Positions 21,521-63,310 of a DNA stretch of 64,000 nucleotides are shown piece after piece. The stretch's first letter is position 1. Every line of letters starts with the position of its first letter. Both the position numbers and the translations under genes were made by a program. The DNA comes from Squalus acanthias (taxonomy: Eukaryota): the NCBI GenBank assembly GCA_030390025.1, contig JASTWF010000069.1, forward strand, positions 744,001 through 808,000, written 5' to 3'. The notes below the pieces were generated by a model. The model made no database searches. It had not been told where the DNA came from and saw only the letters and a program-made list of their open reading frames with translations.

Positions 21521-21886
21521 CTGTATTGTCAGAAGAGTGGAAAGGCGAGACTCCACGAGAGGTGACAGCACAGGAAGGTTTGTGTGCACAGATTCCATGT
21601 CATTACACTTATCCATCGCGTCTGGCAAACAAACCACGAGTTGGAATCTGGATTAATTATGGGGAACGGAGATCATGGTCTATAACCTTTCACTCCAAGT
21701 ATCACAATCACCTGTTGCCACAGTTTCACCATCGGACCCGGCTCTCTGGAGACCTGAGAGATGGTGACTGTTCCCTGATTATAAACAACATCACACAGCG
21801 AGACGCAGGACCTTATTATTTCAGAATAGAATTTGACAACTGGAATCAGTTTGACTACTGGCCTGGAACACAGCTTCATGTTTCTG
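21521..21886 (+). CDS. Siglec V-set exon (copy 2)
   Basis: Same splice sites as copy 1. Six aa differences from copy 1; essential Arg retained. Confidence 0.93.
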
Positions 21887-25307: not shown

Positions 25308-25972
25308 TTTACAGGACAGAAATTATTTTGTGATTCACGTGAGATGGTGTGTGTACGTGAGAAGTGAGCTGGATCAAGTCATTTCCCTCAAGCCTGTGAT
25401 CGCTCCCTGAGTAAAGATGACTTGATTCGCGCAGTGCACTGTACTGGCTACTTCATCTCACCCCATCAACACATCCTTCTATTCCTTTCTCCCTCGTGTG
25501 TTTATCCAGCTTCCCCTTAAATGCATCGCTGCGATTCGCCGCAACCACTCCCTGCGGTGGCGAGTTCCACATTCTCCCCACTCTCTGGGTAACGAGCAGA
25601 AGTGATTATTAAGCGGGGCGTGTAACGGGAGTCCGATCCGATAGCGCCCCAACTGCACAACTGCCCGTCATGAATTTTCACCCTGTGATAAATGTTTCCA
25701 GATCATTCTACAGCACAACCCTGCACACGTCAATAGATCAGGCCCTTGGACAGGGTGTAAAACAGTCCACTAACGCCAGCGTTCCACCCTGAGGAGCGAG
25801 TTACAATTGCTCCCTCTCACAGTGTTTGCCATGAAATCATTCCTTACAGATGTTTTAGTCGATGTATGAATGTGACACCAAATATTCCAGTAATATTAAG
25901 CTTGATTGCTGATCGCACAGCGAGGGATCGAAAGCGGAGAGTAAGTCATCGTTTCTTGCTGTATGTTTCCAG

Positions 25973-26166
25973 GCACTCTGCACACGATTCAGATCCTGGG
26001 AATACGAGCTGCGATATTCATTCTCGCCGTCATCGCCACTGTCACTGGGGTTCGCGTCTGGGACCGAAGACCAGCTAAAGGAAGCCGAGAGCCTGTTGAG
26101 AGCTGTGAGGATACGGGAGTCGGGAATCAGCGGCCTGACCACTTATTTCATCGGACAACTGACTAA
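25973..26166 (+). CDS. TM plus short-tail exon of an activating-type Siglec (TLHTIQILGIRAAIFILAVIATVTGVRVWDRR...TTD*)
   Basis: Acceptor tttcttgctgtatgtttccag| in phase 1, compatible with the C2 donor at 23541. Hydrophobic span contains an Arg; the tail has no Tyr. AATAAA at 26868-26873. Confidence 0.75.
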
Positions 26167-26974
26167 AGCCGAGCGCTCGCCCCCACGAGCACACTTCTCA
26201 TTGCTAGAAAAGCGAGGGAAAGAACAAGGGAGAGTCAGAGCCGCCTGCAGCTTATCTTTTATCTCTTTCTCAATCAGTGGGAACGCGCAAAGCTTTGTGA
26301 GTCGTTGAAACATAACCAAATACAAATCCCTTTTGCTAATTTTCAGCATTAAGCTTTGCTAGATTGTAGTTTAATATTAAGTTTTCTAGTTTACAGTTTT
26401 ATTAATTTAGTCTCATTTCTCCTCTGTTAGAATCAGGGGAAAGTCTATTAAAGTCTAGATTTTATTTACAGTGGGAACCCATTGTCCTCTTGTTCCTGGG
26501 TTGCCTTATCTCCATGGAAACAGAAAGCAAGCACCGAAAGAGCTTGTGCTGAGGGTAAAAAGCAGATAAGGGAGGCCCAGAGCCTGTGCCTGGACACAGA
26601 GAACCCGCCGTGCCTATGGTTGGATGGGTTTCTCCACAGTTCCGGCTCTTGGGGGACATCCTGGTGGGTTTGGTCTGGGTCTCAGTGTAGAAGGGCCAGC
26701 AAGGACACCGATCCGGACAGGTGCAGACACGCAGGGGGAGGAGGAGGATCGGGGGAAACGGGCCAGGCCTTCTACTCAAAGGGGGCAACAGCGGGTAATA
26801 CAATTCTCAATCGTACTTTGTAAACTGATGCTCAGATACCGAGTGTATTCGGTCTCACTGCTGCTTCAATAAAATCAGAACTCTTACCAATACGGAGTCA
26901 GCTTCGAACCATTGACCAGACAGTCCACAGGGAATCCAAATCCATTCTTACATAAGAACATAAGAAATAGGAGC

Positions 26975-34441: not shown

Positions 34442-36915
34442 TATGGTGGTTCGCCACCTAAACGGGCATAACCCACTTTTCCATCTGTGGACAATATATC
34501 GGTGAACCTTCCCTTTAAGGCACCTTACCTTTAAGACAGGAGTGGGCGGGGCTTCAGGGTTTTTCCAGAGAATTCTGGGAGCAGCTTTCTCAGCCATTTT
34601 GTGTGCCATGCAGTGAATTAAAGTTTCTTGTTTTCCACATATGGATTCAGCCTCCATTCGTGTTTCGCGGCAGCCTCAACATTGGTGACCCCGACGCTCA
34701 GAACGTATTCCGAGCACTGCAATGGCGGACACGAACGCAGTTTCCATGAAACTGCCGGAGTTTTGGGAAAACCAGCCGAAGCCTGGTTTCTCCAAGCTGA
34801 ATCTCGCTTCCGGCTGCGAAATATCACCACAGATGGGACGAAGTACGACTATCTCGTCACATCACTCAATAGCGCCGCAGTTTCGAAGGTTTGGACAACG
34901 CTGCAGAACCCACCGGAGGAAGGCAAGTACGCACATCTCAGGACAGCGCTCCTTAAAAAATTTACGGCCTCGGCATATCAGCGAAACTGCCACCTCCTCG
35001 ACCTTCCAGGCCTCGGTGATGCCTCACCGTCAGACCTCCTCTCCCACATGCTCTCCCTCACCGACGAGAGCCCACCCGGATCCCTCTTCCGCACGCTGTT
35101 CATCCGCCAGCTCCCTCTCAGCATCTGCCCAGCGATCGTGGCGTCCGGCCTCACGAACCTGGAAGCCCTGGCCGATGAGGCCGACAAGCTGCTGTCCGCT
35201 CACTCCAGCCGCGACGTCACTCCGGACCTGGCAGCCAATGCCTGGGCGCGCCCCTCACCATCCAGCACGTGGCCACAAGGGCCTGTCACCAGGCCCATGG
35301 GGCCTTCACGCCCCACTAACCCGGGCCACTGTTACTACCACGCACGGTTCGGCGCCAGGGCACAACGGTGCACACCTCCCTGCTCTTTCAAGTCCGCCCC
35401 CGTACCAGCCCCCGCGATGGCTGTGGGCCACGCGGGCTCCCTGCTGTTCATTACGGATGACAAAACCGGCCGCCGGTTCCTGTGCGACACTGGGGCTCAG
35501 CACAGCATCATCCCGGCCTCCTCCCTCGACATCCAAAAGGGCGAACGAGGACCGGCGCTGGCTGCTAACAGCTCGGAAATCCGGACGTATGGCACCCGGA
35601 CAGTCACCCTCGACCTCGCTGGTCGCCGCTACCGATGGGAGTTCATCACTGCCAAGGTACAGCAACACACGAAAGCACCCCTCGAGGAGTTTACCGTCCC
35701 CTCGCGGAGATTCGACCTCATCCACGTGGACATTGTCGGGCCCCTGCCGCCGTCGCAAGGCCACACGCACTTGCTGACCATCGTTGACCGCACCACACGC
35801 TGGCCTGAGGCAATTCCACTGACCTCTACCACCACCGCCGACATCGCCAGAGCCTTCGTCAGCACCTGGGTCGCACGGTTCGGCGTCCCCTCCGACATGA
35901 CGTCGGACAGAGGTCCGCAATTTACCTCTGAACTCTGGACCGCCGTTGCACGCAATCTCGGGGTGACCATTCACCGCACCACTGCATACCACCCCCAAGC
36001 CAACGGACTGTGTGAGCGGTTCCACAGATCCTTGAAGGCATCTCTTCGAGCCAGCTACCAAGATGGCGCCTGGACCGACCGACTTCCGTGGGTCCTCCTT
36101 GGCCTGCGCACCGCGGTTAAAGAAGACCTCCATGCATCGGCAGCAGAGCTCGTGTACGGTCAGCCGCTGCACGTACCCGGCGAGTTCCTGCCCACCGCCA
36201 CGAAACCCTGGTCAGCCGACCAGCAATGCCACGACTTCACCTCACCGGCGCTGCAGTTCGCCCCAGTGCCCATTGCTCGACACGGCGAATCCACCTCACA
36301 CGTCCCACTAAGCCTGCACCAGGCACGGTTTGTTTTCGTCCGGCACGACGCCCACCGCGGACCCCTTCAACCCCCGTACGACGGGCCCTACAAGGTGCTA
36401 CAGGCTGGGGACAAATTTTTCACCCTGCAAGTGAGCGACAGGACCGAAAAAGTGTCGGTTGACCGACTCAAGCCAGCACACTTGGAGCCCGGTGAGCAGG
36501 TCCCTGTAGCTCGTCCACCTCCACGCGGCCGACCTGCCCTCAAGCCGGTTCACCCGGCTGCTCCACGCCCGGCCGTCCCACGTCCACCGGCGTCCTACAA
36601 GAGCCGCTCCGGCCGGCCCATCAGACCGCCGCACCGTCTCGTCCACACCTCCTAAGCGGATTCTGGGGGGAGCTGTGTGGCGGATCGCCACCTAAACGGG
36701 CATAACCCACTTTTCCGTCTGTGGACAATATATCGGTGAACCTTCCCTTTAAGGCACCTTACCTTTAAGACAGGAGTGGGCGGGGCTTCAGGGTTTTTCC
36801 AGAGAATTCTGGGAGCAGCTTTCTCAGCCATTTTGTGTGCCATGCAGTGAATTAAAGTTTCTTGTTTTCCACATATGGATTCAGCCTCCATTCGTGTTTC
36901 GCGGCAGCCTCAACA
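34442..36915 (+). mobile_element. Internally deleted Ty3/Gypsy LTR retrotransposon (2474 bp)
   Basis: 240-bp LTRs at 34442-34681 and 36676-36915 (4 differences seen). PBS TGGTGACCCCGACG (tRNA-Trp) at 34683. PPT GGGGGGAG near 36665. TSD GCAT/ACAT. Confidence 0.95.
34722..36655 (+). pseudogene. Gypsy gag-protease fused in frame to integrase; RT and RNase H deleted; 1-nt frameshift at ~34776
   Basis: KLPEFWENQP/EAWF split over two frames. CYYHARFG..A..C..PC gag motif; LCDTGA protease; integrase VDIVGP..SDRGPQF..NGLCERF and GPY. Confidence 0.9.
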
Positions 36916-41552: not shown

Positions 41553-42451
41553 GGGGGAGAAATTCAGTATCGCCCCATTTGGGGCGCAATTATCGGCCGG
41601 GCACAAAGATTAGCGCCTGGCACTAATTATCGCCACCGACTGCAAACTTGACTTTTATCGCCCCTGGAGGTAATTGGAGTGCTAAATCAGGCGCTTCACA
41701 CCTGTCTTAAGGCGCAAAGGCCGAGGAGCGAGGTGCTACCTCAGAGCGCTGGCGAAGCTCATGTAATGTCAGTCAGCAATGGAACACACACACAATGGCA
41801 CGGGCCAGTTCTTAAAGGGGATGGTTAATCTCACTTTCCATCCACAACCTGCTAATTGCAACCTTGAATCTCGGCCTGGAGAGACCTGCACATCAAATCT
41901 GCTGGAAAGAACAATGGAGAGTACCAGGCAAAGAGCTCAGAGTGCAGCCCCCACAGTCTCTTCTAAATCGATACAAGGAATGGCAAATCAAAATGAACCT
42001 GCAAAGTGCTGCTCAGTACCCAAAACTCCTTCACACAACGTTGAAACTCTCCAGAAGTCTCTCTCTCTCTCTCTCTCTCTCAGAATGCATAGTTCAAAAA
42101 TGGCACCAACAATAAAAGGCAGGAAGCGGTCACCTTTAAATAGCGCTCCCCCTTTCCCTTCATGACTGCAGAACACTCAACTCAAACTGTCGTTGCTAGC
42201 ATCAGGCGGTAAGGCAGGGGGCGCCACTCAATATCCGCTCCGGGGCGATAACAGGGCGTTGCGCACTCGACTGACGTCACGATCTGCCGGTGCAGGAGAT
42301 CGTGGCGGTAGTTTTTAGCACCGCCGCAAAATGTCTAGTTAATTTCACGAGCGGCGCAAACTTCGCCGCGCCTGGGTGCTAGATGCTTTGCGTCCCATTA
42401 GCGCCCTCTTAAGGTGCTAACGGGAGGCGCAACCAACTGAATTTTTCCCCC
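41553..42451. mobile_element. MITE family B, 3-bp TSD TAT
   Basis: GGGGGAGAAATTCAG / CTGAATTTTTCCCCC TIRs; TAT at 41550-41552 and 42452-42454. Confidence 0.85.
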
Positions 42452-44583
42452 TATGACTCTAATGATTCAGGATGGAGATAGTGGCGTGAGTTCTGACGGC
42501 TCCTAATCCACTGTTCCTGCCTTGTAAGTCAGCACAGAATATACCTCAATGGATGCGTCATTTAGGCATTGTGTTGGGTGGAAGATTTGCTTCAGTCACC
42601 AGGGTCCTGAGGTCTGTGAGCCAATATAGAATGAACTTGTCCACTCCCGTGTCAACGATTCCCTTCCATCCGTTGGATTGATGGAGCCATCTGTGTGGAG
42701 AGGTAAGTGTGTGAGGTGAGGGAGAAGTGAGAGAAAATGTTAACTTACCTTTGTTTCTTCCTGCAGGCTTCAACAGTTGGGGATGCGGAGAGTCTCGCAT
42801 CTCACCGGCAGAGATGACAGAATGCTCGTTGCATTCTCCAATGCAACAACCATCTGATTTCTGCTCACAAAAGAGGTTTGATGAGTCTTGAGTACAAGGA
42901 CTCATCAAACAACAGAGAATGTCAGTGTTTGACAGCGTCACAGAGCTGTCAAACTATGACAAGTCATCTGTCCAAAATCTTTGACAGATGAAACGTCACA
43001 CGCTGACGTTCTCTGTAACCAGCTTCCCCTTAATTGGCCTGCTAAACCTGCTGGGCGGGCTAAACAAGGTCAACCAAGGGGAACTAGCGTGGGTTGGCCA
43101 CAAGTCGATGGAGGCGGGACTGAAACCCGACAAGCAGCAGTCCCTCTGTAGCTTTCAGAAGCTCTTTATAATAATTTGTCCGTGACTACACAAACCACTC
43201 TGGGTCCAGGTATATTGTGTATCAGTAAAACAGGTTTATTGTGCATTAAACATCCAGTACAAGGAAATAATAATTAACAAGAAGATAGTCGCAGTCTGTT
43301 CATTGCACCCCAGCGTTCCTTCCGAGTGACTCTTTAACACTTGCTGTGTTCTGTTGACTGAAGCTTCTCATCCTCTGGTTTCGCGCTGCTTTCAGTGTTC
43401 AACAGCTGTTCTGCAAAAACATTATGCCTTGGAATTTCTGCTGACCGCAGGTGCTGGGGGGCATCACAAGCAGCCTTATTATTGCACAAACACACTTCTC
43501 ATTGCTAGAAAAGTGAGGGAAAGAACGAGGGAGACTCAGAGTTGCAGATAATGGAGGCCTAGAGCCTGTGCCTGGACACAGAGAACCCGCCGTGCCTATG
43601 GTTGGATGGGTTTCTCCACAGTTCCGGCTCTTGGGGGACATCCTGGTGGGTTTGGTCTCGGTCTCAGTGTAGAAGGGCCAGCAAGGACACCGATCCGGAC
43701 AGGTGCAGACACGCAGGGGGAGGAGGAGGATCGGGTGAAATGGGCCAGGCCTTCTAACCAAAGGGGGAAAGAGCGACGGGCGCGAGCAAAAGCCGTTGGG
43801 GGGACAAAATGGTTCAAATTGGATAGTGGGCTGGGAGGTGAAAGGTCAAACTCAATGGCCAACTTCAGAAAGCTCAGTCTATTGGGGGAAAAACACATTC
43901 AGGAAGCCCAGAGTTGGAGCTGTTGGGGGGGAAATGTTTAATGAGATGGGAGAAGCAGATGGATATACCCTAAAGAAGGTTTTTTTGTGAAAGAATGAGT
44001 TTATTGGCTGGGATTGAGGCTTCCTGGAGGAGGGTGACAGGACAAGGAGGATAACAAGTCTTCTTTCTCTTCTGTGCCCAGTGCCACATTCTTCGACAAA
44101 ACCTCCCAAACACATCACCTCCAGCACCACTCCTGGAAGGACAAGGACATCCGGCGCATGTGAACAGGGGAGAGTTCTTTCAGCGAGCTAGCACAGGGGG
44201 AGACGGGCCGAATGGGGGAAGGGTGGAGGAACGGGACTAAGTGGATAGCTCTTTCAGGCGTGATGGGCCCAATGGTCTCCTCCTGAGCCATCGAATTCCC
44301 TGACTTTACGCAGGGAGCTCATATCAGCTTCTCCGCCCATCACATTGGATGATTGTGTGTGAGAGGTGTTTGTGCGGAGAGAGGCGGACCTTTGAATCTC
44401 CTGCCCCAATGAGTCAGCATCAAGTTGTCCCTGGTCAAGCATTGCATCCCAATCACATCAAATGCAAAACCTTTCCGTCCCTTCCCTCCTCCCAACATCT
44501 CCCCCAGCAGGTTGTCTGTTGTTACCCGGAATCTCAAACACACCCCACCCCTCATTCCTCACCTCCTCCCATCACACCTCCTC

Positions 44584-47319: not shown

Positions 47320-47562
47320 TCACTGAAATCTGATCTCTGCGTATTCCGTGCCCTCGTCCTTGTCAACAGTCCCGTCGCCATTGGACAGCTTTAAGAAGTT
47401 GATGCTGGCGTACAGAAGGTCCTCGTGCTTGGCGGGTTGTCCATGTCCAGCATCTCCTCCCGCCCGACCTTCAGAGAGACCCCGGGGAGCTGGTGTCTCC
47501 GCCTCGCTCGTTGCATCACTGGTTACATTCCAGGAGTCAGGAACCGTCTCGCACTGCGAACC
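47320..47562 (-). CDS. Terminal cytoplasmic exon with ITIM (LLYASI) and ITIM-like motif (TEYAEI)
   Basis: tttgctttgtag|GGT..., 80 aa GSQCETV...HEDLLYASINFLKL...EGTEYAEIRFQ then TGA. This is the tail layout typical of CD33-related Siglecs. Confidence 0.92.
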   Translation of the reverse strand, partial: GSQCETVPDSWNVTSDATSEAETPAPRGLSEGRAGGDAGHGQPAKHEDLLYASINFLKLSNGDGTVDKDEGTEYAEIRFQ

Positions 47563-50500
47563 CTACAAAGCAAATGGAAGCACAAGACATTCTCAGGTCA
47601 TTTCCCGGGGCTGATGGGGTGAAATGATTGCACAGACTAACCAGTGTAAGTTGTGGCTGAGTGGGTTTAACACTCGCTCGCTCGTCTCTGAGTCAGAAGG
47701 TCGTTGGTTCGAGTCCCCACTCCAGAGACTTGAGCCCCATAATTCACAAGCTCAGGACATCCCAAAACACTTCAAAGCCAATGAAATACTTCGTGATGTT
47801 GGTTGAGGGATAAAAATTGCTCCTTGACTCTGGGGAGAACTTCCCCTGCTCTTCGCAATATTAGCCATGGGATCTTCCATGTTAACCTTACAGGTTTAAT
47901 GTCTCATCTGAAAAACTGCCCCTACGACGGTGCAGCGCTCCCTCAGTACTGCCCCTCCGACAGTGCGGCGCTCCCTCAATACTGCCCCTCCGACGGTGCA
48001 GCGCTCCCTCAGTACCGCCCCTCCGACAGTGCGGCACTCCCTCAGTACTGCCCCTCCGACAGTGCAGCGCTCCCTCAGTACTGCCACTCCGACGGTGCAG
48101 CGCTCCCTCAGTGCTGCCCCTCCGACAGTGCGGCGCTCCCTCAGTACTGCCCCTCTGACAGTGCGGTGCTCCCTCAGTACTGCCCCTCCGACAGTGCGGC
48201 GCTCCCTCAGTACCGCCCCTCCGACAGTGCAGCGCTCCCTCAGTACTGCCCCTCCGACAGTGCGGCGCTCCCTCAGTACTGCCCCTCCGACAGTGCGGCA
48301 CTCCCTCAGTACTGCCCCTCCGACAGTGCGGTGCTCCCTCAGTACTGACCCTCCGACAGTGCGGCACTCCCTCAGTACTGCCCCTCCGACAGTGCGGTGC
48401 TCCCTCAGTACTGCCCCTCCGACAGTGCGGCGCTCCCTCAGTACTGCCCCTCCGACAGTGCGGTGCTCCCTCAGTACTGCCCCTCCGACGGTGCAGCGCT
48501 CCCTCAGTACTGACCCTCCGACAGTGCAGCGCTCCCTCAGTACTGCCCCTCCGACAGTGCGGCGCTCCCTCAGTACTGCCCCTCCGACAGTGCGGCACTC
48601 CCTCAGTACTGCCCCTCCGACAGTGCGGTGCTCCCTCAGTACTGCCCCTCCGACAGTGCGGCGCTCCCTCAGTACTGCCCCTCCGACAGTGCGGCACTCC
48701 CTCAGTACTGCCCCTCCGACAGTGCGGTGCTCCCTCAGTACTGCCCCTCCGACGGTGCAGCGCTCCCTCAGTACTGATACTGGGGAGTGTCGGCCTGGAT
48801 TATGGGCTCAAGTCTCTGGAGTGGGGACTTGAACCCACGACCTTCTGACTCAGAGTCGAGAGGGAGATTTGTAAACCCACTGAGCCACGACTGACATCTC
48901 AGGCAGAAATTCGTGGGCAACCTGTCTGGGAATCTCCAACACGTGTTGTCTACACCCTGAGATTGAGGCTTCAGACTAAGTGCAAACAGCTTCTGTACCT
49001 GGTGCTTGGCGGAGAGTGGACTGGTGGTCATTGCAATGTCACTGGGCTCTGAAGCTCTCTCCTCAGTCGCTGCCTTTCTCCTGAAATAGCCGAATATCAC
49101 ACTGCGGTTATATCTCAGAGTGTAACGTTACAGCAACTACTGGACTGTCTCTTTAAATCGCTTCTGTCCACAGACATAGAATCACACAGCACAGAAAGAG
49201 GCCATTTCGCCCTTTGTTCCTGTGCTGGCTCTTTGAACGAGCTCTCCAATTAGCCCCACTCCCCCCCTGCTCTTTCCCCACAGCCCTGTGAATTTTTCCC
49301 CTTCAAGTATTTATCCAATTCCCCTTTTGAAAGTCGCTGTTGAATCTGCTTCCACCGCCCTTTCAGGCAGCGCGTTCCTGATCACAACAGCTGGACACTG
49401 AGCCGTGAAAGGCACACTCCAGGTCATAGCGGACGCAGGGACCGCTCACGGGGAGTGGCGTCTGCTGCTGAACCCGAGGGAAACAGTCACTGACTCAAGG
49501 AGAGATGATTGGAGTAAAGATTTAAAATACAATGAAACCTTCGCACTTACTTTCGCACGCACTCGAAGATTACGAATCCAGCCAGTGCAATGCTCAGTGC
49601 GATCCCAGCAGCAAGCAATCCTACTCTCCATTCATTGCCGTCTCCACCTGGAAAAACTGCCATCAATTCATTAATTTTTAGCCATTCATTATCAGGGTGT
49701 GAGCGTTGCTGGCAAGGCCATCCATAGTTGGACGGTGTAAGATTCTAAACACTGTAATTAAACCGCTGCTACCGTCTGGAGATCCAGGTTCAGAATGAAT
49801 TGTGAATTGGTTACAGACAGATTCAAAATGTAGGAGGTGAGCATGTGTTCTTTGTTTGTGAAGACACAGAATGGTGGAAGTCAGCAGGGGGTCCCTTGCC
49901 TGGTGGTCAGTCTGGTCCTTAGTTTGTAAGGCCACATGGACAGGAAGGAGAAACACCGGGTGAAGAGGAAGTCCCGTCCCATCCCCCCACACACCTCACA
50001 GGAACATGAACGTGTCATGCAGGAGGAACGCCAATCAGGGAAGGTTTAGAGTGAAACTGACCTATCAGAGGGATGGCAGACAGTGATATACAAGGGGGGC
50101 TGGCAGAAAGGCCCTAGAAAGAGTGACCCAGAGGCGGGGAATTCAGAACACAGAAGGTACAAAGAAGACAGAACGCAAGAGCAGACGGACAGAGGAAGCT
50201 GGCCAGTCTATGTTTCAATTTTAAACTTTTCTGTATTGATCACGCAGAGATAAAGGAGTATGTATGAAAGTCGGACATGGAGCTTAGATATTGTTAAAAG
50301 GGGGACTTTTATGTACGGTTGACTTGGAATATAAATCGCCCAGAGGTAGCGGGTAAATTGCTGGGCCGTACTTTAATGTACGGGTAAATTGGGCGCATAT
50401 TGATTGCGATTGTACACTTGAATTTTGAACTGTAGTGTGAATAAAGACCAATTATATTGATCACATACTTGTCTCTCATTGTTACGCTTATTCGTAATTC

Positions 50501-53500
50501 TCGAGGTCCGAACAGTAGTAAGAGAAAGGCTTACAGCGGTCTTCTTGAACCACTGGTTGCGGGTTTGATAGAAACTGAGTGGCCACTTCAGAGGGCAGTT
50601 AGGAGTCAACCATGTTAGTGTGGGACTGGAGTCACCTATAGGCCCAGACTGGGTAAGGATGGCAGGTTTCCTTCCCTCAAGGGATATAAGTGAACCACCT
50701 TATATATGTAATATCTATATCCATATCGATATCTATATATATATATATCAGCCAACGTCACTAAAATAACAGATTATCTGGTCATTATCACATTGCTGTT
50801 TGTGGGAGCTTGCTGTGCGTAAAATGGAGGCCATGTTCCTACATTACAACAGTGACTACACTGGTATGTCCTGTCCACAAACACAGGACAAATCCAATCC
50901 GGCCAATTACCGCCCCATCAGTCTACTCTCAATCATCAGCAAAGTGATGGAAGGTTTCATTGACAGTGCTATCAAGTGGCACTTACTCACCAATAACCTA
51001 CTCACCGTTGCCCAGTTTGGGTTCCGCCAAGATCACTCGGCTCCAGACTTCATTACAGCCTTGGACCAAACCTGGACAAAGGAGTTGAATTCCAGAGGTG
51101 AGGCGAGAGTGACTGCCCTTGACATCAAGGCAGCGTTTGACCGAGTGAGGCATCAAGGAGCCCCAGTAAAACTGAAGTCAATGGGAATCGGGGGGAAATC
51201 TTTCCACTGGCTGGAGTCATACCTAGCACAAAGGACGATGGTTGTGGTTGTTGAAGTTCAATCATCACAGCCCCAGGACATCGCTGCAGGCACTCCTCAG
51301 GGCAGCCTCCAAGGCCCAACCATCTTCAGCTGCTTCATCAATGACCTTCCCTTCATCATAGGTTCATAGTCATAGAGTCATACAGGCACAGAACGAGGCC
51401 ATTAGGCCCATTGAGTCCGTGCCAGCTCTCTGTAGAGCAATCCAGTCCATCCTATTCCCCCTTTCTATCCCCGTAGCCCTGCAAGTTTATTTCCCTCAAG
51501 TGCCTATCCAATCTCCCCTTGAAAACATCGAGTGTCTCCGCTTCCACAACTTCCGTCGGCAGCGAGTTCCAAGTCATCACCACTCGCTGCATAAAAAGGC
51601 TTTCCCTAACATCCCCCCTGTATCTCTTGCCCAAAACCTTAAATCTGTGTCCCCTAGTCCTTGTACCATCAACTAGTGGGAACAGCCTTTCCCCGTCGAG
51701 CCTATCCAAACCCATCATAATCTTGTACACCTCTATCAAATCACCCCTCAACCTCCATTGCTCTAATGAAAACAAATCCAGCTACTCCTACCTGTCCTTG
51801 TAGCTAAGATCCCCCATCCCCGGAACCATTCTGGTAAATCTCCTCTCCACCCTCTCAAGCTCCTTCACATCCTTCCTAAAGTGTGGTGACCAGAACTGGA
51901 TGCAATACTCCAGTTGTGGCCTAAACAGCACTTTATAAAGATTCAGCATAACTTCTCTACTTTTGTACTCAATACTTCTATTTATGAAGCCCAAGATCCC
52001 ATATGCTTTGCTAACCACTCTCTCAATATGTCCTGTCACCTTCAGGAACCTATGCAAATTAACTCCCAGGTCCCTCTGACCCTGCACACTCTTTAAAACT
52101 GTGCCATTAAGTGTATATTAGCTCTCCCTGTTCCTTCTGCCAAAATGCATCACCTCACACTTCTCTGTATTAAATTCAATCTGCCACTTGTCTGCCCATT
52201 CTGCTAGCCTTTCTATGTCCTGTTGCAGTCGATTGGTATCATCCTCACTGTTTGCCACACCCCCAGGTTTGGTGTGGCCGGCAAATTTAGAAATTCTACT
52301 CTGTATTCCAATATCTAGATTATTTATATATATCAAAAAAAGCAGTGGCCCCAGCACTGACCCTTGGGGAACACCACTGTCTACCATCCTCCAGTCTGAA
52401 AACCAGCCATTTACCACAACTCCCTGTTTTCTGTCCTTAAGCCAATTCCTTATCCACCTGCCACTGACCCACCTATTCCATGAGCCTCAATTTTATTAAC
52501 CAGCCTTCCATGTGCTACTTTGTCAAACGCCTTCCAAAAATTCATGTAGCCAACATCCATTGCATTCCCCTCATCAATTCTCCTTGTTACTCCTTGTGAC
52601 TGCATTGTCGGAGGGCCAGTACTGAGGGAGAACTGTGCTGTCGGAGGGGAGGTACTGAGGTAGTGCTGCACTGTCGGAGGGGCAGTACTGAGGGAGCACT
52701 GTAATGTCGGAGGGGCTGTATTGAGGGAGTGTTGCACTGTCAGAGGGACAGTTCTGAGGGGGTGCCGCACTGTCAGAGGGGCATTACTAATTGAGCGCCG
52801 CACTGTCGGAGGGGCAGTACTGAGGGAGCGGCGCACTGTCGGAGGGGCAGTACTGAGGGAGTGCCGCACTGTCGGAGGGGCAGTACTGCGGGAGTGCCGC
52901 ACTGTCAGAGGGGCATTACTGAGGGAGCGCCGCACTGTCGGATGGGCAGTAGTGAGGGAGCGCCGTACTGTCGGAGGGGCAGTACTGAGTGTGCACCGCA
53001 GTGTCGGAGGGGCAGTACCGAGGGAGCGCCGCACTTTCAGAGGAGCAGTACTGAGGGAACGTCGCACTGTCGGGGGGGCAGTACTGAGGGAGCGCCACAC
53101 TGTCGGAGGGGCAGTACTGCGGGAGCGCCGCACTGTCAGAGGGGCATTACTGAGGGAGCGCCGCACTGTCGGATGGGCAGTACTGAGGGAGCGCCGCACT
53201 GTCGGAGGGGCAGTACTGAGTGTGCACCGCACTGTCGGAGGGGCAGTACTGAGGGAGCGCCGCACTTTCAGAGGGGCAGCACTGAGGGAACGCCGCACTG
53301 TCGGAGGGGCAGTACTGAGGGAGCGCCGCACTGTCGAGGGGCGGTACTGAGGGAGCGCTGCACTGCCGGAGGGGCAGTACTGAGGGAGCGGCACACTGTC
53401 GGAGGGGCAGTACTGAGGGAGTGCCGCACTGTCGGAGGGGCAGTACTTCGGGAGCGCCGCACTGTCAGAGGGGCATTACTGCGGGAGCGCTGCACTGTCG

Positions 53501-56500
53501 GAGAGGCAGTAATGAGGGAGCGCTGCACTGTCGGAGGGACAGCTCTGAGGGGGTGCCGCACTGTCAGAGGGGCATTACTGATTGAGCGCCGCACTGTCGG
53601 AGGGGCAGTACTGAGGGAGCGGCGCACTGTCGGAGGGGCAGTACTGAGGGAGTGCCGCACTGTCGGAGGGGCAGTACTGCGGGAGTGCCGCACTGTCAGA
53701 GGGGCATTACTGAGGGAGCGCCGCTCTGTCGGATGGGCAGTACTGAGGGAGCGCCGCACTGTCGGAGGGGCAGTACTGAGTGTGCACCGCACTGTCGGAT
53801 GGGCAGTACTGAGGGAGCGCCGCACTGTCGGAGGAGCAGTACTGAGTGTGCACCGCACTGTCGGAGGGGCAGTACTGAGGGAGCGCCGCACTTTCAGAGG
53901 GGCAGTACTGAGGGAACGCCGCACTGTCGGAGGGGCAGTACTGAGGGAGCGCCGCACTGTCGAGGGGCGGTACTGAGGGAGCGCTGCACTGCCGGAGGGG
54001 CAGTACTGAGGGAGCGGCACACTGTCGGAGGAGCAGTACTGAGGGAGTGCCGCACTGTCGGAGGGGCAGTACTGAGGGAGTGCCGCACTGTCGGAGGGGC
54101 AGTACTGCGGGAGCGCCGCACTGTCAGAGGGGCATTACTGCGGGAGCGCCGCACTGTCGGAGAGGCAGTAATGAGGGAGTGCCGCACTGTCGGAGGGGCA
54201 GTACTGAGGGAGCGCCGCACTTTGAGAGGGACAGTACTGAGGGAACGCCGCACTGTCGGAGGGGCAGTACTGAGGGAGCGCCGCACTGTCGGAGGGGCAG
54301 TACTGATGGAGCGCTGCACTGTCGGAGGGGCAGTACTGAGGGAGCACCGCACTGTCAGAGGGGCAGAACTGAGGGACCGAAGCAGTGTCGGAGGGTCAGT
54401 ACTGAGGGAGCGCCGCACTGTCGGAGGGGCAGTACTGAGGGAGCGCCGCACTGTCGGAGGTGCCGTCTTTCACATGAGATATTAACCCGAGGCACCGTCT
54501 GTTCTCTCAGGTAGATGTAAAAGATCCCATGACACTATTCAACAAAGAGTCCTGTCTGTAAAATACAGATGATCTTGTCATCGGAACATTGCTGCTTGTG
54601 GGATCTTGCTGTGCGCAAAGTAGACATTCACGGGTAATGTAGAATTAAGGATGTCCTTACTTACATTGCACAGTGAGTGCGAGGGTCTGCTCCGATGAAA
54701 CAGATGGATATCTGACTCTGCAGGTGAGAGTTTGTCCGTGGTGTTTGAGTGATGGAATCAGGGACAGGACAGAAGTATATGTCAGAGTGACACCATGCTG
54801 AGTTACACTGTTTGAGACTGACCCGGGTACGTCAGTGGGATTGACCCAGGTTAAGACAGGTGCTGTTCCATTGCACGTGGTGTTGAAGGTGCAGCTTACG
54901 TTCACACGCTTTCCTGCAATCATTTCAGCAGGGAATATCCTGGGTTTATCTGTGAAATCTAACACACAGAGAATGGATCCTTTTAGATAAATATAACGTG
55001 AGGCATCAGTTCAAATAGAAATCACAGTCCCGCAAGAGAAAGTACTTTTAACAGGATTATACCAGAACTGAGAGATTACAACGATTAGGAAAGATTGAAC
55101 AGGCTGGCGCTCTTTTCTCTAGAAAAGAGAAGGCTGAGGGGTGACCTGATAGAGGTCTTTAAAATTATGAAGGGTTTCGATAGGGTATACGTAGAGACGA
55201 TGTTTCCACTTGTGGGGGAGACCAGAACTAGGGTCCATCAATATAAGATAGTCACTGATAAATCCAATCGGGAATTCAGGAGAAACTTCTTTCCCCAGAG
55301 AGTGGTGATAATGGGGAACTCGCTACCACAGGGAGTGGTTGAGGCGAATAGCAGAGATGCATTTAAGGGGAAGCTGGATAAACACATGAGGGAGAAAGGA
55401 ATAGAAGGATATGTTGATGGGGTGAGATGAAGAGGCGTGGGAGAGGCTAGTGTGGAGCATAATCACCGGGATGGACCAGTTGTGCTGAATGGCCTCTTTC
55501 TGTGTGGCAGACTCGATGTAACTTTGTGTGAATCTGTAAGAAGATTATGGCCCAGAAATTGATCTCGCTCTGTTCCCGCGGGGGTAAGCCTTTCCCGCGA
55601 TGTCTCACCTCGCTTATGCTTTTTCAGATCCAGCTCGCACGAACTTGATGTTCCAGACATCAGCTGTGCTGGGCTTGCGTATCCCAGCGGCGTAGTGAAT
55701 TCGTGCGAGCTGTGGGATCACGTGACTCAGTTAGAGCCAATGGCAGCACACCATCTTCCATTCATAAGTCTCACAGCATGGCGGTGAAATCTATGAATCT
55801 TACACCCCCCCAAAATAACAGCTAAACCTCAATTAAATTAAAAAAAAAAACCATCACATTAATAAAATAAGTATAGTTAATTAAATTAACCATTTTAAAT
55901 AAAAAATTACATTTTTGAAAAAATTTAAAATCTTTTAAAAAGTTATAAAAATAAACTTACCTGTCTTTAAAGTCTCTAAAAAAGATATACCTGTAAAAAA
56001 AAATTCAAAAAAATACTTAATTCACTACTTACCTTCTTAAAAGCGGGTCTTACTCCTCCTTTTTACATTTCCAAAATCTTCCCTACTTACCTGCGCGTCC
56101 AAAGCATGAAGTGCACAGCGTGCGCGCAGCCTGTAGCGCGCACGCGATGCACCCAGGCCCCGCCCCCTTTTCAGAAGAGCAATTGCCGGTTTTCAGCGCA
56201 TGCGCAGGGCATGCAGAAAACCGGCAATTGGAGTGGGAATACGCGAGAGTATGCAGTGCGTACTCTCGCGTCCCGGGATCAATTTTCGGCCCATTGTTTC
56301 CTATTTCCAGTATTGGCAGAGTGTCTGTCACTGAGCTTAATACACTTTCTCTGCGAGACCCTTGAATTCACTATACTGGGTGGGGGTGGAGGATCTGGTC
56401 ACAGCCCCAGGAACACTGGCTCTCCAATCGCTCAGAGATCTCTGCCAATGTTAAATTAAATCCTCTCCACGGCAGGACAGAAACAATTTGCAATTATCAC

Positions 56501-59500
56501 TCAACCAAAACATAAAAGAAAGACTTGCATTGCTACAGCGCATTTCATGACCTCAGGACATCCCAAAGCGCTTCACAGCCAATGAAGTACTTTTGAAGTG
56601 TTAAACCAGATGATCTGGTCATTATCACATTGCTGTTTGTGGGAGCTTGCTGTGCGCAAATTGGCTGCCACGTTTCCTACATGACAACAGTGACCACACT
56701 TCAAAAAAAGAACTTCATTGTCTGTGAAGCGCTTTGGGACCTCCTGAGGTGGTGAAAGGTGCTGGAGAAATGTGAGTCTGTCATTTGTTTGCATGTAAGA
56801 CTTTTAAACACGATTAGAGAGATAGATGGGAGTCGATAAACTGATAACAATCATGGACACAGTCAAGACATTCAATCATTTATAATAAAGTGAGTATCAG
56901 AGGTTGATTTAGGACTGAACTGGAAGGTATCGCCAGGTTATTGATAATCAGACGCTGTGTTATAATAAGCTGTGTTTTGTGTTAATGTGTAACCGCCGCA
57001 GTTTATGTTATTTCCCACTGACTGTTGAGCGTGAATTGTGGAGTAATTATAACCCAGCACTTACCAGAAACATGAAGCTGTGTTCCAGGCCAGTAGGTAT
57101 AGTTATCACTGTTGTTAAATTCTATTCTGAAATAATAAGTTCCTGCGACTCGCTGTGTGATGTTGTTTATAATCAGGGAACAGTCACCATCTCTCAGGTC
57201 TCCAGACAGCCGGGTCCGATGGCGAAACTGTGACGACTCACGATTGTGATCCTTGGAGTGAAAGGCTATAGACCATGATCTCTGTTCCTCATTATTAATC
57301 CAGATTCCAGCTCGCGGTTGGTTTGCCAGATACGATGGATAAGTGTAATGACATGGAATCTGTGCACACAAACCTTCCTGTGCTGTCACCTCTCGTGGAG
57401 TCTCGCCTTTCCACTCCTCTGACAATACAGCTGGGGAGAGAAATATCAATATTTAGCACTGGATGGCTTGTCGCTCCACTGGACTCGATATCCACCCCCT
57501 CCGTCACTGGCGCACAGTGTCTGCAGTGTGGACCATCTACAGGACACACAAGGAACTCACCAAGGTTACATTGACAGCACCGCCCTCCCCTGCGACCTCT
57601 ACCACCCAGAAGGACAAGAGCTACTGAGACAACACAATCCAAGAATGAATATCAAACACTGCGCACCGTGTTCTGTGATTGGGGAGCATTATAGTGAACC
57701 CACATGTCGGACAGACTCATAGTCACCTTGCCCGTGGACATCGCACCCGCCTGTCCTCATGCCTTTTCCTCAGCACACAATGTTTCTGTATGTGAAGACA
57801 ATTCTTGACCCAACAGATGGCTCCATCAACCCAACGGATGGAAGGGAATCCTCGGCACGGGAGTAGACAAGTTCATTCTATAGTGGCTAACAGACCTCAG
57901 GACCCTGTTAAGTGAAGCAAGTCTTCCACCCAACACAATGCCTAAATGACGCACCAATTGAGGTATATTCTGTGCTGATTTACAAGGCAGGAACAGTGAA
58001 TTAGGATCCGTCAGAACTCACGCCACTATCTCCATTCTGAATCACTTTCGTCATAGAGTCATAGAGTCATAACGGCACAGAAGGAGGCCATTCGGCCCAT
58101 CGAGTCCGTGCCGGCTCTCTGTAGAGCAATCCAGTCCGTCCCAATCCCCCGCTCTATCCCCGTAGCCCTGCAAGTTTATTTCCCTCAAGTGCCTATCCAG
58201 TCTCCCCTTGAAAAGATTGAGTGTCTCCGCTTCCACCACTTCCATCAGCAGCGAGTTCCAGGTCCTCACCACTCGTTGCATAAAAAAGATTTTCCTCACA
58301 ATCCGCTGCTCTCTTGCCCAAAACCTTAAATCTGTGTCCCCTAGGACTTGTACCATCAACTAGTGGGAACACCCTTTCCCCGTCTAGCCTATCCAAACCC
58401 ATCATAATCTTGTACACCTCTATCAAATCACCCCTCAACCTCCTTTGCTCTAATGACAACAAATCCAGCTTCTCCAACCTGTCCTTGTAGCTAAGATCCC
58501 CCATCCCCGGAACCATTCTGGTAAATCTCCTCTGCACCCTCTCAAGGGCCTTCACATCCTTCCTAAAGTGTGGTGACCAGAACTGGATGCAATACTCCAG
58601 TTGTGGCCTAACCAGTGCTTTATAAAGCTTCAGCATAACCTCTCTACTTTTGTACTCAATACCTCTATTTTTGAAGACCAAGATCCCATATGCTTTGCTA
58701 ACCACTCTCTCAAAATGTCCCGCCACCTTCAGGGACCTATGCACATTAACTCCCAGGTCCCTCTGTCCCTGCACACGGTTTAAAACTGCCATTAAGTGTA
58801 TATTGCCTCTCCCTGTTCCTTCTGACCAAAATGCATCACCTCATACTTCTCTGTATTAAATTCCATCTGCCACTTGTCTGCCCATTCTGCTAGCCTTTCT
58901 ATGTCCTGTTGCAGTCGATTGGTCTCATCACTGTTTGCCACACCCCCAAGTTTGGTGTCGTCGGCAAATTTAGAAATTCTACTCTGTATTCCAATATCCA
59001 GGTCATTGATAGATATAAGAAAAAGCAGTTGCACCAGCACTGACCCTTGGGGAACACCACTGTCTACCATCCTCCAGTCTGAAAAACAGCCATTTACCAC
59101 ATCTCGCTGTTTTCTGTCCATAAGCCAATTCCTTATCCAAGCTGCCACTGACCCACCTATTCCATGAGCCTCAATTTTGTTAACCAGCCTTCTATGTGGT
59201 ACTTTGTCAAACGCCTTCCGAATATCCATGCAGGCAACATCCATTGCATTCCCTTCATCAATCCTCCTTGTTACTTCACAAAAAATTCAGTTACATTAGT
59301 CAAACACGATCTGCCTTTTACAAATCCGTGTTGGCTCTCCTTAATTAGCTTAAACATCTCCAAGTGTCCGATAATTTTTTCCTTGATTATTGTTTCTAAA
59401 ACTACACCCACCAACGATGTTATACTGACCGGCCTGTAGTTATTAGAATTGTCCGTACACCCTGTCTTTAACAATGGTGTCACATTTGACACTTTCCAAT

Positions 59501-61714
59501 CCTTAGGCACCTGCTCTGCATCTAGGGAAGATTGGAAAATTATGGCAAGCCCTTCCGCTATCTCCTCCCCCAATTCCCTTAGCAAGCCTGACCTTCTTGT
59601 TTGCTCTTCAGCCCTCTTGATTGTCTAAGCTGATTCAGTCTACTTGGCGAATTTTGGATTCTCATTGACCCACCTATTCCATGAGCCTCAATTTTGTTAA
59701 CCAGCCTTCTATGTGGTACTTTGTCAAACGCCTTCCTAAAATCCATGTAGACAACATTCATTGCATTCCCTTCATTTACCGTCCCTGTTACTTCATCAAA
59801 AAATTCAATTATATTAGTCAAACATGATAGCCTTTTACAAATCTGTGTTGGCTCTCCTTAATTAGCTTAAACATCTGCAATTATCCCATAACTTTTTCCT
59901 AGCAAGCCTAACTTTCTTGTTTGCTCTTCAGCCCTTCTGATTGTCTAAGCTGATAGAGTCTACTTGGCGAATTTTGGATCCACATTGTACAAGGAATCTC
60001 TTTGGATTCTCATTGACTGCAGAATCTCTTTGGATCCTCATTGTCTAAGCAAACTCTTTGGATCCTCATTGTCTAAGGAATCTCTTTGGATTCTCATTGT
60101 CTAAGGAATCTCTTTGGATTCTCAATGTCTAAGGAATCACTTTTGATTCTCATTGTCTAAGGAATCTCTTTGGATTCTCATTGTCTAAGGAATCTCTTTG
60201 GATTCTCATTGTCTAAGGAATCACTTTGGATTCTCATTGTCGAAGGAATCTCTGTGGATCCTCATTGTCTAAGGAATCTCTGTGGATCCTCATTGTCTAA
60301 GGAATCTCTCTGGATTCTCATTGTCTAAGGAATCTCTTTGGATCCTCATTGTCTAAGGAATCTCTTTGGATCCTCATTGTCTAAGGAATATCTTTGGATT
60401 CTCATTGTCTAAGGAATCTCTTTGGATTCTCATTGTCTAAGGAATCTCTTTGGATTCTCATTGTCTAAGGAATCTCTTTGGATTCTCATTGTCTAAGGAA
60501 TCTCTTTGGATTCTCATTGTCTAAGGAATATCTTTGGATTCTCATTGTCTAAGGAATCTCTTTGGATTCTCATTGTCTAAGTAATCTCTTTGGATTCTCA
60601 TTGTCTGAGGGATTATTTTAGTTCCAACAATATTGCTGTAGGGTGATTCCGATACAGCATTGTAGACTGACTTGTCCCCAAGCTCAGCACTGGCCCTACT
60701 CCAGCAGACTCTTTGAAGCACAGGAGCGAATCGCCTCTCGCCTGAGCGCTGTATGTGTCGGAGGTGCAGAGGCATTGGGTTCATGACTTTTGCAGGCGGT
60801 CTCGCTGCGTGTTTGTTAAAACTGAACTATGCCTCACACTAAACGTCGGTGGCAAACACACCTTGTTCCGTGTTCGTCTGAAATATTCATGATTTCAGCA
60901 GGGCTGTGGGGAAAGAGCGGGGGAGTGGGATTAATTGGATAGCTCTATCAAAGAGCCGGCACAGGCACGATGGGCAGAATGGCCTCCTTCTGTGCTGTAT
61001 CATTCTATGATTCTATTAAATGTAACTGCACAGCAGATCAGAGGCAAACAGAGAAACTGTATATATGACACCTTTATATACTTCCTGTCTTGTTTGCTTG
61101 TTATCTTAACCACATCTTGCACCCTTACCACGGTTGCTATCATCCTGAGAATGGGCAGTAATTGTGAGGACTGAACTGCCTGTCTATTCTCAGCACTGCT
61201 GTGCTGTCATCATGGCGAATTGTAACTAAAATTTGGATCTCTGTAATACACCAATTCTGGCCTCTTGTCCATCCCCGAGTTTTGGAAGGGAATTCCAGAG
61301 CTTATGGTCTGGACGTCTGAAGGCACGGCCGCCATTGGTGGATTGATGGAAATCGGGGAGGCACAAGAGGCCTGAATGGGTGGAACGCAGAGATCTCGGA
61401 GGCTTGCAGGGCTGGAGGAGGTTACAGAGATAGTGAGGCAGGGGGCGAGGCCATGGAGCGATTTGAAGACGAGGATGAGGATTTTAAATTTGGGGCGTTG
61501 CCGGACCGGGAGCCAATGTAGATCAGCGAGCGCAGGGTTGAGGAGTGAACGGGACTTGGTGCGAGTTAGGACACTGGGTCACTGCTGAATTTGGCCCCCA
61601 ATCATAGCTCAATAAGAATGATCTTTCACAAAGACTATTAACCATAAGTATGTCCGAGCTGACGATGATATTACCTTGGAGGAGTGACAGGAGGAAGTAA
61701 GATTTTCTGATCAT
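47320..61714 (-). CDS. Complete CD33-like inhibitory Siglec gene (leader-V-C2-TM-cyt1-cyt2), join of 6 exons, 373 aa
   Basis: Exons of 40+366+294+97+82+243 = 1122 nt. All introns are GT-AG with matching phases (1,1,1,2,0) and there are no stops. The protein runs MIRKSYFLLSLLQAVLSEEW...YYFRIE...TM...LLYASI...TEYAEIRFQ*. Orthology is not assigned. Confidence 0.9.
47750..48890 (-). mobile_element. tRNA-derived DeuSINE-type SINE with an internal 33-bp minisatellite expansion (47915-48776)
   Basis: A box GTGGCTCAGTGG and B box GGTTCAAGTCC on the - strand, then ~26 units, then the AGATGAGACATTAAACC...GATCCCATGG core. Confidence 0.8.
48999..49080 (-). CDS. First cytoplasmic exon (RKAATEERASEPSDIAMTTSPLSAKHQ)
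   Basis: ctatttcag|G AGA AAG ... CAC CAG|gtacag, 82 nt, phase 2 in and phase 0 out, exactly bridging the TM and ITIM exons. Confidence 0.85.
49551..49647 (-). CDS. Transmembrane exon of the inhibitory Siglec (GDGNEWRVGLLAAGIALSIALAGFVIFECVRK)
   Basis: gtttttccag|GT...CGAAA|gtaagt, 97 nt, phase 1 in and phase 2 out. Hydrophobic span followed by a basic stop-transfer. This frame is not in the ORF track. Confidence 0.88.
49736..50535 (+). mobile_element. 800-bp solo LTR
   Basis: TGTAAG...CTTACA termini; TSD ACGG/GCGG; AATAAA at 50440. Antisense to the Siglec. Confidence 0.8.
50865..51365 (+). mobile_element. L2/CR1-group LINE RT fragment
   Basis: NYRPISLLS, QFGFR, LDIKAAFDRV, PQGS. Confidence 0.88.
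51366..52599 (-). mobile_element. CR1 copy 'b' in the C2-TM intron of the inhibitory gene
   Basis: Same 5' junction with the minisatellite as at 3347 and 18044; has its own 3' tail and flank. Confidence 0.93.
52600..54462. repeat. 33-bp minisatellite (reverse orientation), ~56 units
   Basis: AGGGAGCGCCGCACTGTCGGAGGGGCAGTACTG units followed by the SINE core at 54462-54620. Confidence 0.97.
54665..54958 (-). CDS. Siglec C2-set exon (copy 3)
   Basis: gtgttag|AT TTC ACA ... CAA T|gtaagt, 294 nt. DFTDKP...VSC.FNTTC.GT.P.LTW...HHGQTLTC.V, including the extra Cys expected for the V-C2 inter-domain disulfide. Confidence 0.95.
55549..56292. mobile_element. MITE family A in the V-C2 intron of the inhibitory gene
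   Basis: GGCCCAGAAATTGA / TCAATTTTCGGCCC TIRs; absent at the paralogous sites ~8800 and ~22660. Confidence 0.82.
57065..57430 (-). CDS. Siglec V-set exon (copy 3, inhibitory gene)
   Basis: ctctccccag| ... TCTG|gtaagt, 366 nt, phase 1/1. Motifs EGLC..IPC, GDCSL.I and YYFRIE with the essential F-strand Arg. Confidence 0.95.
58051..59890 (-). mobile_element. CR1 copy 'a' in the leader-V intron (58051-59580), plus a locally duplicated fragment
   Basis: Extends further 5' (NYRPVSITS, SQHGFVKGRSCLTN) than the other copies; (TATGACTC)n tail at 58051. Confidence 0.9.
59975..60608. repeat. 28-bp VNTR (CTCATTGTCTAAGGAATCTCTTTGGATT), ~22 copies
   Basis: Direct inspection. Confidence 0.95.
61675..61714 (-). 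CDS. Signal-peptide exon of the inhibitory Siglec (MIRKSYFLLSLLQ/A)
   Basis: ggacaATG with A at -3. Ends CAAG|GTAATA in phase 1 and joins the V exon to give ...LLQAVLS-EEW, a plausible signal peptide. An upstream acceptor (ctttctctttcag) would start the exon at 61756. Confidence 0.8.
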
Positions 61715-62429: not shown

Positions 62430-63310
62430 TGATGCTGGTTGAGGGATAAATATTGGCCCCAGGACACCGGGAAGAACTCCTCCTGCTCTTCTTCAAAATA
62501 TTGGCCCTGGGATCTTTTACGTCCACCTGAGAGAGCAGACAGGGCATCGGTTTAACATCTCATCTGAAAGACGGCACCTCCGACAGTACAGCACTGACCC
62601 TCCGACAGTCCGGCGCTCCCTCAGTACTGCCCCTCCGACAGTGCGGTGCTCCCTCAGTGCTGCCCCTCTGACAGTGCGGCGCTCCCTCAGTATTGACCCT
62701 CCGACAGTGCAGCGCTCCCCCAGTACTGCCCCTCTGACAGTGCGGCGCTCCCTCAGTTCTGCCCCTCCGACATTGGGGTGCTCCCTCAGTACTGCCCCTC
62801 CGACAGTGCGGCACTCCCTCAGTACTGACCCTCCGACAGTGCAGTGCTCCCTCAATACTGCCCCTCCGACAGTACGGCGCTCCCTCAGTACTGCCCCTCC
62901 GACACTGCGGCGCTCCCTCAGTACTGACCCTCCGACAGTGCAGCGCTCCCTCAGTACTGCCCCTCCGACAGTGCGGTGCTCCCTCAGTACTGCCCCTCCG
63001 ACAGTGCGGCGCTCCCTCAGTACTGCCCCTCCGACAGTGCGGCACTCCCTCAGTACTGACCCTCCGACAGTGCAGTGCTCCCTCAGTACTGCCCCTCCGA
63101 CAGTGCGCCGCTCCCTCAGTACTGCCCCTTCGACAGTGCAGTGCTCCCTCAGTACTGCCCCTCCGACAGTGCGGCGCTCCCTCTGTCCTGGCACCATGAG
63201 TCTCGGCCTGGATTATGTGTTGAAGTCTCTGGAGTGAGGCCTTGAAACCACAACCTTCTGACTCAGAGGCGAGAGTGAGAAAGAGAGAGTGATGAACCCC
63301 CTGAGCTACA
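62430..63310 (-). mobile_element. DeuSINE-type SINE with a 33-bp minisatellite expansion (62575-63183)
   Basis: Head near 63200-63310, array, then the core GGTGCCGTCTTTCAGATGAGATGTTAAACCG on the - strand. Confidence 0.8.

Follow-up and report, generated by a model that had tools for sequence, protein, structure and literature searches.

Does a shark genome hold a CD33-like inhibitory Siglec, and does it pair that receptor with an activating counterpart? The question arises from a 64,000-nt stretch of Squalus acanthias contig JASTWF010000069.1 (the window, in whose positions all coordinates are given), where a six-exon gene on the minus strand, gene A, faces a plus-strand gene built of similar exons. 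Judged from sequence, we consider it fairly probable that gene A encodes an intact shark Siglec, in which Arg115 is the predicted contact for sialylated glycans and leukocyte inhibition is expected from its ITIM (immunoreceptor tyrosine-based inhibitory motif) and its ITSM (immunoreceptor tyrosine-based switch motif), and that the facing gene is its likely activating partner. The best reading of the whole is a paired inhibitory/activating Siglec locus, and this likely pair is a more interesting feature than gene A itself; gene A alone would be a modest find because its relatives are already present in automatic annotations.

Literature searches, for which subscription papers were mostly beyond reach, returned no study of shark Siglecs. 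Cao et al. (2009) reportedly discuss non-mammalian CD33-related Siglecs, and Bornhofft et al. (2018) are said possibly to cover non-mammalian members. In the portions of text available, a teleost study states that inhibitory CD33-related Siglecs are missing from fish genomes and never mentions sharks (PMC7226832), Siglecs are counted among the immunoglobulin (Ig) families of the jawed-vertebrate ancestor (PMC8455134), the family is tabulated under Tetrapoda (PMC13262535), and two other papers add nothing further on sharks (PMC13358205, PMC9630641). The paired Siglecs described in the accessible parts of the cited papers are primate genes (PMC5701461, PMC4042635).

Gene A encodes an intact Siglec-type receptor

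Gene A is a genuine, intact six-exon Siglec-type gene on the minus strand (61714-47320). Its leader exon (61714-61675, 40 nt) encodes a signal peptide in 13 codons plus 1 nt and is of the same type as in shark relatives. It is followed by a V exon (57430-57065, 366 nt) with a V-set domain, a C2 exon (54958-54665, 294 nt) with a C2-set domain, a transmembrane (TM) exon (49647-49551, 97 nt) encoding a stalk and an uncharged helix and matched by relatives in tblastn, a first cytoplasmic exon (49080-48999, 82 nt), and a last exon (47562-47320, 243 nt including the stop) with the ITIM at Y344 and the ITSM at Y367, 23 residues apart. All five introns have GT-AG ends and pyrimidine-rich acceptors, with phases 1,1,1,2,0, and the spliced 1122 nt give 373 aa, with the sole stop at the end, in the order leader-V-C2-TM-ITIM-ITSM. 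The six exons, matching phases and 373 aa proposed in the first-pass annotation are thereby borne out. Its remark that the gene was hidden from the open reading frame (ORF) track is true in that the gene is spliced, but trivial, as it merely reflects the introns and relatives are already automatically annotated.

When the V exon was used as query, 105 of 153 candidates counted as hits, at 53-75% identity, and every one of them belongs to a shark or a ray (21 species, by name count). They are automatic gene models, some partial or fused, that NCBI and UniRef had named CD33-like, Siglec-10/12/13-like or MAG-like. Each gene A exon is matched in these independently annotated shark proteins. We used 150 V domains of this family as the reference set for residue conservation and loop-sequon counts.

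In Pfam, the V exon exceeds the thresholds of both V-set (47.9 bits) and Ig_CD22 (30.4 bits), and the C2 exon that of C2-set_2 (35.2 bits). Among the 26 PDB sequences that match the V exon, 18 are Siglecs and these take the top 18 places, with MAG (52.3 bits), Siglec-5 (50.6), CD33 (50.1) and sialoadhesin (49) nearly tied at the head. An AlphaFold model of the V domain is moderate (predicted local distance difference test 72, loops <50) and uninformative on the binding loops; a fold search with it placed Siglecs at all of ranks 1-47 among the matches listed. In alignments with MAG and Siglec-5, Arg115 falls on their F-strand Arg, and W20 and Y124 on the corresponding A- and G-strand aromatics; this Arg is kept in 136 of the 150 family V domains. 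The six cysteines Cys35, Cys40 and Cys97 (kept in 149, 149 and 150 of 150) and Cys158, Cys164 and Cys215 fit the Siglec pattern, with a predicted intra-sheet pair C40/C97 and a V-C2 interdomain pair C35/C164 at aligned positions. The essential Arg and Siglec-specific cysteines claimed earlier are therefore intact. Hydropathy peaks at 2.47 (19-residue Kyte-Doolittle window) in a helix at about residues 242-262 with a charge-free core; the family-type leader and this single hydrophobic helix suggest a type I membrane protein. The architecture first proposed, V, one C2, TM, ITIM and a distal ITIM-like motif, is upheld by the Pfam, hydropathy and tyrosine-motif evidence, the distal motif being an ITSM.

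It is improbable that gene A, while inhibitory, is no longer a sialic-acid lectin, its site being masked by glycans on N119 and N123 and its ligand being a protein or its action restricted to cis. Gene A alone carries these two N-glycosylation sequons beside the binding Arg; they are absent from cassettes B and C of the plus-strand gene described below and rare in the family (position 123 in 2/150 V domains, anywhere in the loop in 6/150), and glycans there may block ligand binding, all of which speaks for such a loss. Against it, W20, R115 and Y124 are all retained, and glycosylation of the sequons is a prediction from sequence. We continue to regard gene A as a predicted sialic-acid-binding inhibitory receptor.

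Contigs from the runs of two studies, guessed to be RNA and 91-97% alike, end exactly at 57065 (V donor) and 54959 (C2 acceptor) and then run on for 11-16 further letters, a weak hint of border use from relatives or paralogs. Over the V and C2 exon stretch that this comparison covered, no contig was counted as spanning an intron and no transcript of gene A or its partner emerged, a point on the side against an expressed pair; some unique intron bins lacked cover and a V-C2 joint was absent from the 15 listed, but these two observations carry no weight as evidence. An upstream, out-of-frame ATG in weak context lies at 61736 (minus strand), 22 nt before the leader ATG, and starts an overlapping ORF of 65 codons that runs through the first splice junction; two NCBI models (P0098 and P0105) begin at the homologous ATG, so that it is conserved and may tune translation.

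A likely activating partner on the plus strand

The first-pass annotation overlooked the gene of activating type on the opposite strand. Two V-C2 cassettes lie there, each with an open V-set exon in which the Arg is intact and an open C2 exon with GT-AG borders: cassette C (V, 7663-8028; C2, 9388-9681) and cassette B (V, 21521-21886; C2, 23248-23541). The V domains are 85% (C) and 83% (B) identical to gene A at the aa level and the C2 domains 95-96%. A TM exon (25973-26166), located by tblastn of 238 collected proteins against the window, follows in a phase that fits the C2 donor at 23541; it encodes a hydrophobic helix containing an Arg, and a tail free of tyrosine. Splicing cassettes C and B to the TM exon gives 503 codons in one frame, with no internal stop and no Tyr in the tail. 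Within the window, tblastn found no TM exon between cassettes C and B. This TM exon shares 60% identity over 40 aa with a white shark protein (P0026) and 58-61% with short-tailed TM-Arg proteins, a type to which 8 proteins among the 105 first hits belong, spread over four named species; a homolog search with the exon alone, a short hydrophobic and hence weak query, returned no match at E<=10 among 44 candidates. Because the TM exon carries an Arg and no tyrosine, the partner is likely a receptor of activating type. The locus thus combines, at sequence level, the features by which paired receptors are recognised: similar neighbouring ectodomains, an ITIM tail in one gene, and a charged TM segment without tyrosine motif in the other.

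The two cassettes differ by 4-6% in their introns from each other and from gene A, which rules out an assembly artefact as their source. One V-C2-minisatellite-LINE (long interspersed nuclear element) repeat unit spans 3345-18042 (plus strand), and the same minisatellite-LINE junction occurs at 3345, at 18042 and in gene A intron 3 (~52600). The junction at 3345 would imply that a further, third V-C2 cassette, and with it the partner's leader, lies to the left of the window.

We regard it as unlikely that gene A is a functional inhibitory Siglec while the plus-strand cassettes are pseudogene fragments or yield a secreted product, leaving no working pair. What lends this view some weight is that no partner leader exon was found within the window, so that a pseudogene or two fragments are conceivable, that an 11.8-kb repeat-laden intron separates the cassettes, and that a candidate mini-exon (~25921-25940, GT donor near 25941) would put the TM exon out of frame; human activating Siglecs also often carry null alleles, according to the accessible part of one source (PMC6288428). 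Against it, the TM exon and each of the four Ig exons are open and have canonical splice sites, the C2 exons (7-8/294 differences) are better conserved than intron 2 (62-81/1358), and the repeat junction implies that the gene extends leftwards. A likely activating partner is accordingly retained as the preferred reading. Two stretches devoid of exons copy other parts of the locus: 43485-43775 the partner's 3' flank (26562-26793, 96%) and 42451-42694 a fragment of intron 1. They are either repeats or what is left of a further duplication.

A gene-conversion tract and divergence in the loops

Gene A shares with cassette B a tract at 57333-57781 (minus strand; counterpart ~21170-21618, plus strand) that covers the 3' end of intron 1 and the first 98 nt of the V exon. 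Only 1 of its 449 nt differs, compared with 62 of 1358 (4.6%) in intron 2 (p 3.5e-7), and the 364-nt identical run within this comparison was reached in none of 10000 permutations. The ectodomains of gene A and cassette B are sisters (100/99 in the careful tree described below), though their TM exons belong to types spanning shark orders, and the TM-Arg label, borne by 7 rows of a 74-row quick tree, requires 7 changes there; ectodomains therefore track species and not signalling type. These data point to concerted evolution by gene conversion between gene A and cassette B, a hallmark of paired receptors. Over the remainder of the V domain (aa 47-135), 29 of 268 nt differ between the two, with 26 nonsynonymous against 3 synonymous changes, located at family-variable columns.

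Several points count against this reading. The tract boundaries were picked after the data had been seen, the proportions of nonsynonymous and synonymous differences over the whole V domain do not differ significantly (p 0.26), and within the pair 18-21 of the 121 V-domain residues are not the same, most of these lying in the ligand loops, in contrast to the homogenised binding domains of primate pairs. Because the ligand loops are not homogenised as they are in primate pairs, gene A and its partner may recognise different glycans.

Relation to CD33-related Siglecs and MAG

The family probably represents, in sharks, the lineage from which tetrapod CD33-related Siglecs arose, with the balance about even against a parallel expansion derived from MAG; CD33-related ancestry is plausible but unproven, and both architecture and tail are CD33-like. 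A V+C2 profile of 15 family members scored CD33 at 120-126 bits, Siglec-5 at 113, Siglec-10 at 111, MAG at 106-107 and Siglec-8 at 103 against PDB, with CD22 (58-61) and Siglec-15 (51) far below. We then consider a careful V+C2 tree of 56 rows and 221 columns, rooted on lamprey, which contains no MAG, Siglec-1, mammalian CD22 or Siglec-15. Fourteen rows of a 70-row quick tree had been dropped as long branches or near-duplicates, among them one that is Siglec-15-like and one from a snake that is CD22-like, and about one third of the non-family rows were named through lookups, the remaining taxon labels being assigned by similarity. On this tree the family forms one group (100/98), which joins four other shark rows (98/87); the resulting shark group is sister to a clade that unites CD33-related rows of amphibians, reptiles and mammals with three rows labelled ray-finned, the whole being supported at 99/91 and in species-tree order. 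The last exon of gene A is 35% identical over 54 aa to a turtle CD33-related tail, with the same 23-residue spacing of the ITIM and ITSM tyrosines.

The competing view, that the shark family expanded in parallel from a MAG-like gene and that its CD33-related likeness, tail included, is convergent or shared primitive, is a serious possibility that we place a little short of an even chance. MAG scores about as high as CD33-related Siglecs in sequence and profile searches, the five-domain relatives are colinear with MAG domains 1-5 (208 bits), and one member of the shark clade (P0178) matches MAG at 158 bits against 102 for Siglec-8 and 65-73 for CD33. Moreover, constraining all 22 shark rows to group together was not rejected by the approximately unbiased (AU) test (p 0.054). 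Each of these observations cuts against CD33-related ancestry. On the other side stand the order of the profile scores, in which CD33, Siglec-5 and Siglec-10 exceed MAG, the union of sharks with tetrapod CD33-related rows in the free tree, the turtle-like tail, and the AU test with all 33 bony-vertebrate rows constrained together, which was marginally rejected (p 0.046); both constrained groups were chosen after the tree was seen. A profile search for true MAG, Siglec-1 and Siglec-15 orthologues returned none that was recognisable. The grouping with CD33-related Siglecs on which the first-pass annotation had hung its dating is seen among the sampled sequences, but its AU values are borderline and MAG is missing from the tree. 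The lamprey outgroup in these trees is a Lampetra protein with two Siglec-like V domains (P0186/P0250).

Origin of the two-Ig form

The earlier proposal that the two-Ig architecture dates at least to the gnathostome ancestor is disfavoured, as ectodomain length proved labile. Among the 98 family proteins having a V-C2 pair, the first C2 is joined directly to the TM segment in 20, and V-domain number is 2-7 in 26. On the 74-row quick tree, in which V domains are undercounted in two rows, the two-Ig label takes 12 changes for 15 rows, and species labels cluster (31 changes vs 57 when shuffled). In the family tree the genes of the window adjoin a sawshark protein, the nearest relative (P0034, Pristiophorus japonicus), and the number of Ig domains in the closest relatives (P0034, P0046 and P0012) is 4-6. 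In most longer relatives the final base of the C2 exon starts a Tyr codon; in gene A this base meets the TM exon and creates an extra, unpaired Cys234 at the junction. A single ectodomain is shared by a long and a short model in P0049 and P0050. No additional Ig exon was detected in the C2-TM intron (tblastn, best E 0.37), nor remnants of middle Ig exons in any intron. Because the two-Ig label recurs across the whole family tree, the two-Ig form of gene A is probably derived by loss of middle exons, in parallel to mammalian CD33. Direct inheritance of the two-Ig CD33 architecture from the gnathostome ancestor could draw on the fact that rays as well as sharks have two-Ig forms whose tails carry ITIM/ITSM motifs (P0105, P0098, P0073 and P0103), but the many label changes, the longer nearest relatives, the stray Cys and the shared long and short ectodomain make it very improbable. 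With exon loss preferred, a gnathostome-ancestor date may apply to the clade and its tail, not to the two-Ig architecture.

Other members of the family show 3-7 tandem V-set domains with the Arg mostly intact (shark and ray models P0001-P0011), multivalent heads that exceed the two V domains of Siglec-12. Several Siglec subfamilies lie on one Heptranchias contig (P0032, P0040, P0048, P0074, P0178 and P0192), and a CD22-like protein (P0132) shares a Chiloscyllium contig with family members, which suggests a single mixed Siglec cluster in sharks. In the window itself, clustering is seen at the local scale.

Proposed function and history

By analogy with mammalian Siglecs (PMC6288428, PMC4042635 and PMC5701461, in the portions available), gene A would bind sialylated self or pathogen glycans via Arg115 and be clustered by ligand. 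Src-family kinases would then phosphorylate Y344 and Y367, and the phosphorylated tail would recruit SHP-1/SHP-2 to give inhibition, as in mammalian Siglec biology. The tyrosine-free partner may pair through its TM Arg with an adaptor carrying an immunoreceptor tyrosine-based activation motif (DAP12 or FcR-gamma) and so deliver activation as a counter-trap, to which its repeated V domains could add avidity. Historically, gene A would have lost middle Ig exons to reach the two-Ig form with Cys234, and the V-C2 cassette of the partner would have been amplified through unequal crossover of the similar LINEs that lie in introns 1 and 3, with gene conversion presumably holding the frameworks alike while the binding loops diverged.

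A broader proposal, which we advance tentatively and with some doubt, is that sharks and rays hold a full CD33-related Siglec system co-orthologous to that of tetrapods and dating to the jawed-vertebrate ancestor. It would comprise ITIM+ITSM receptors in clusters that have expanded, an ancient activating TM-Arg exon joined time and again to ectodomains that underwent local conversion, and heads made multivalent by tandem V or V-C2 units; the window would then contain a complete pair whose loops diverge under pathogen pressure. If a shark inhibitory/activating pair is indeed under gene conversion, sialic-acid self-recognition and a counter-trap against mimicking pathogens are either older than the bony vertebrates or evolved on two occasions. 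The locus makes this question testable with two constructs differing at about 20 V-domain residues.

Other elements of the window

A general cluster search (atlas) matched only Siglec/V-set clusters. A Gypsy-type long terminal repeat (LTR) retroelement at 34444-36915 (plus strand) contains a 677-aa frame with an integrase core and DUF7041, flanked by 238-nt LTRs that are 98.7% identical, and sits inside GC-rich duplicated repeats (~31.6-40.4 kb). Arrays of a 33-nt minisatellite, up to 8 kb long and attached to the ends of short interspersed nuclear elements, occupy 1-3344, 9886-18041, 23749-24336, 47915-48776, 52602-54460 and 62589-63190; the long ORFs that they yield are spurious, though the translation of one forms part of a collected protein (P0114).

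Comparison with known systems

Gene A is closest to the elasmobranch Siglec-like proteins, with which it shares 53-75% V identity, leader, C2, TM and an ITIM+ITSM tail, and among which both two-Ig and TM-Arg forms occur. It differs from them in the junction Cys234 and in its two FG-loop sequons, and the partner repeats V-C2 cassettes, whereas these relatives mostly repeat V alone.

Human CD33 (Siglec-3), the best PDB match of the family profile, and Siglec-5, -7, -8 and -10 have the same order of V, C2, TM, ITIM and distal motif, the F-strand Arg and the Cys pattern, but are only ~30% identical to gene A. The spacing of the two tyrosines is 23 residues in gene A and 18 in a mammalian CD33-type tail (P0220). 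Mammalian CD33-related genes typically, though not as a strict definition, have a short linker exon after the first C2; the gene A C2 exon joins the TM exon directly, with nothing found in the intron.

MAG (Siglec-4) is the top single-sequence match of the gene A V exon and is colinear with the five-domain relatives. It is a conserved single-copy gene, whereas the shark family is multi-copy and fast-evolving and has a double-tyrosine tail.

In primate SIGLEC5/14 and SIGLEC11/16, too, an inhibitory gene neighbours one with a charged TM segment, the 5' regions have undergone conversion, and paralogs cluster within species, according to the parts available of two studies (PMC5701461, PMC4042635). 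The shark genes lie tail to tail ~21 kb apart, in contrast to SIGLEC11/16, which are head to head at 9 kb. Conversion in the shark spares the ligand loops, whereas the binding domains of the primate pairs are described in the same sources as homogenised, and the shark activating-type gene, unlike primate paired Siglecs, has at least two V-C2 cassettes.

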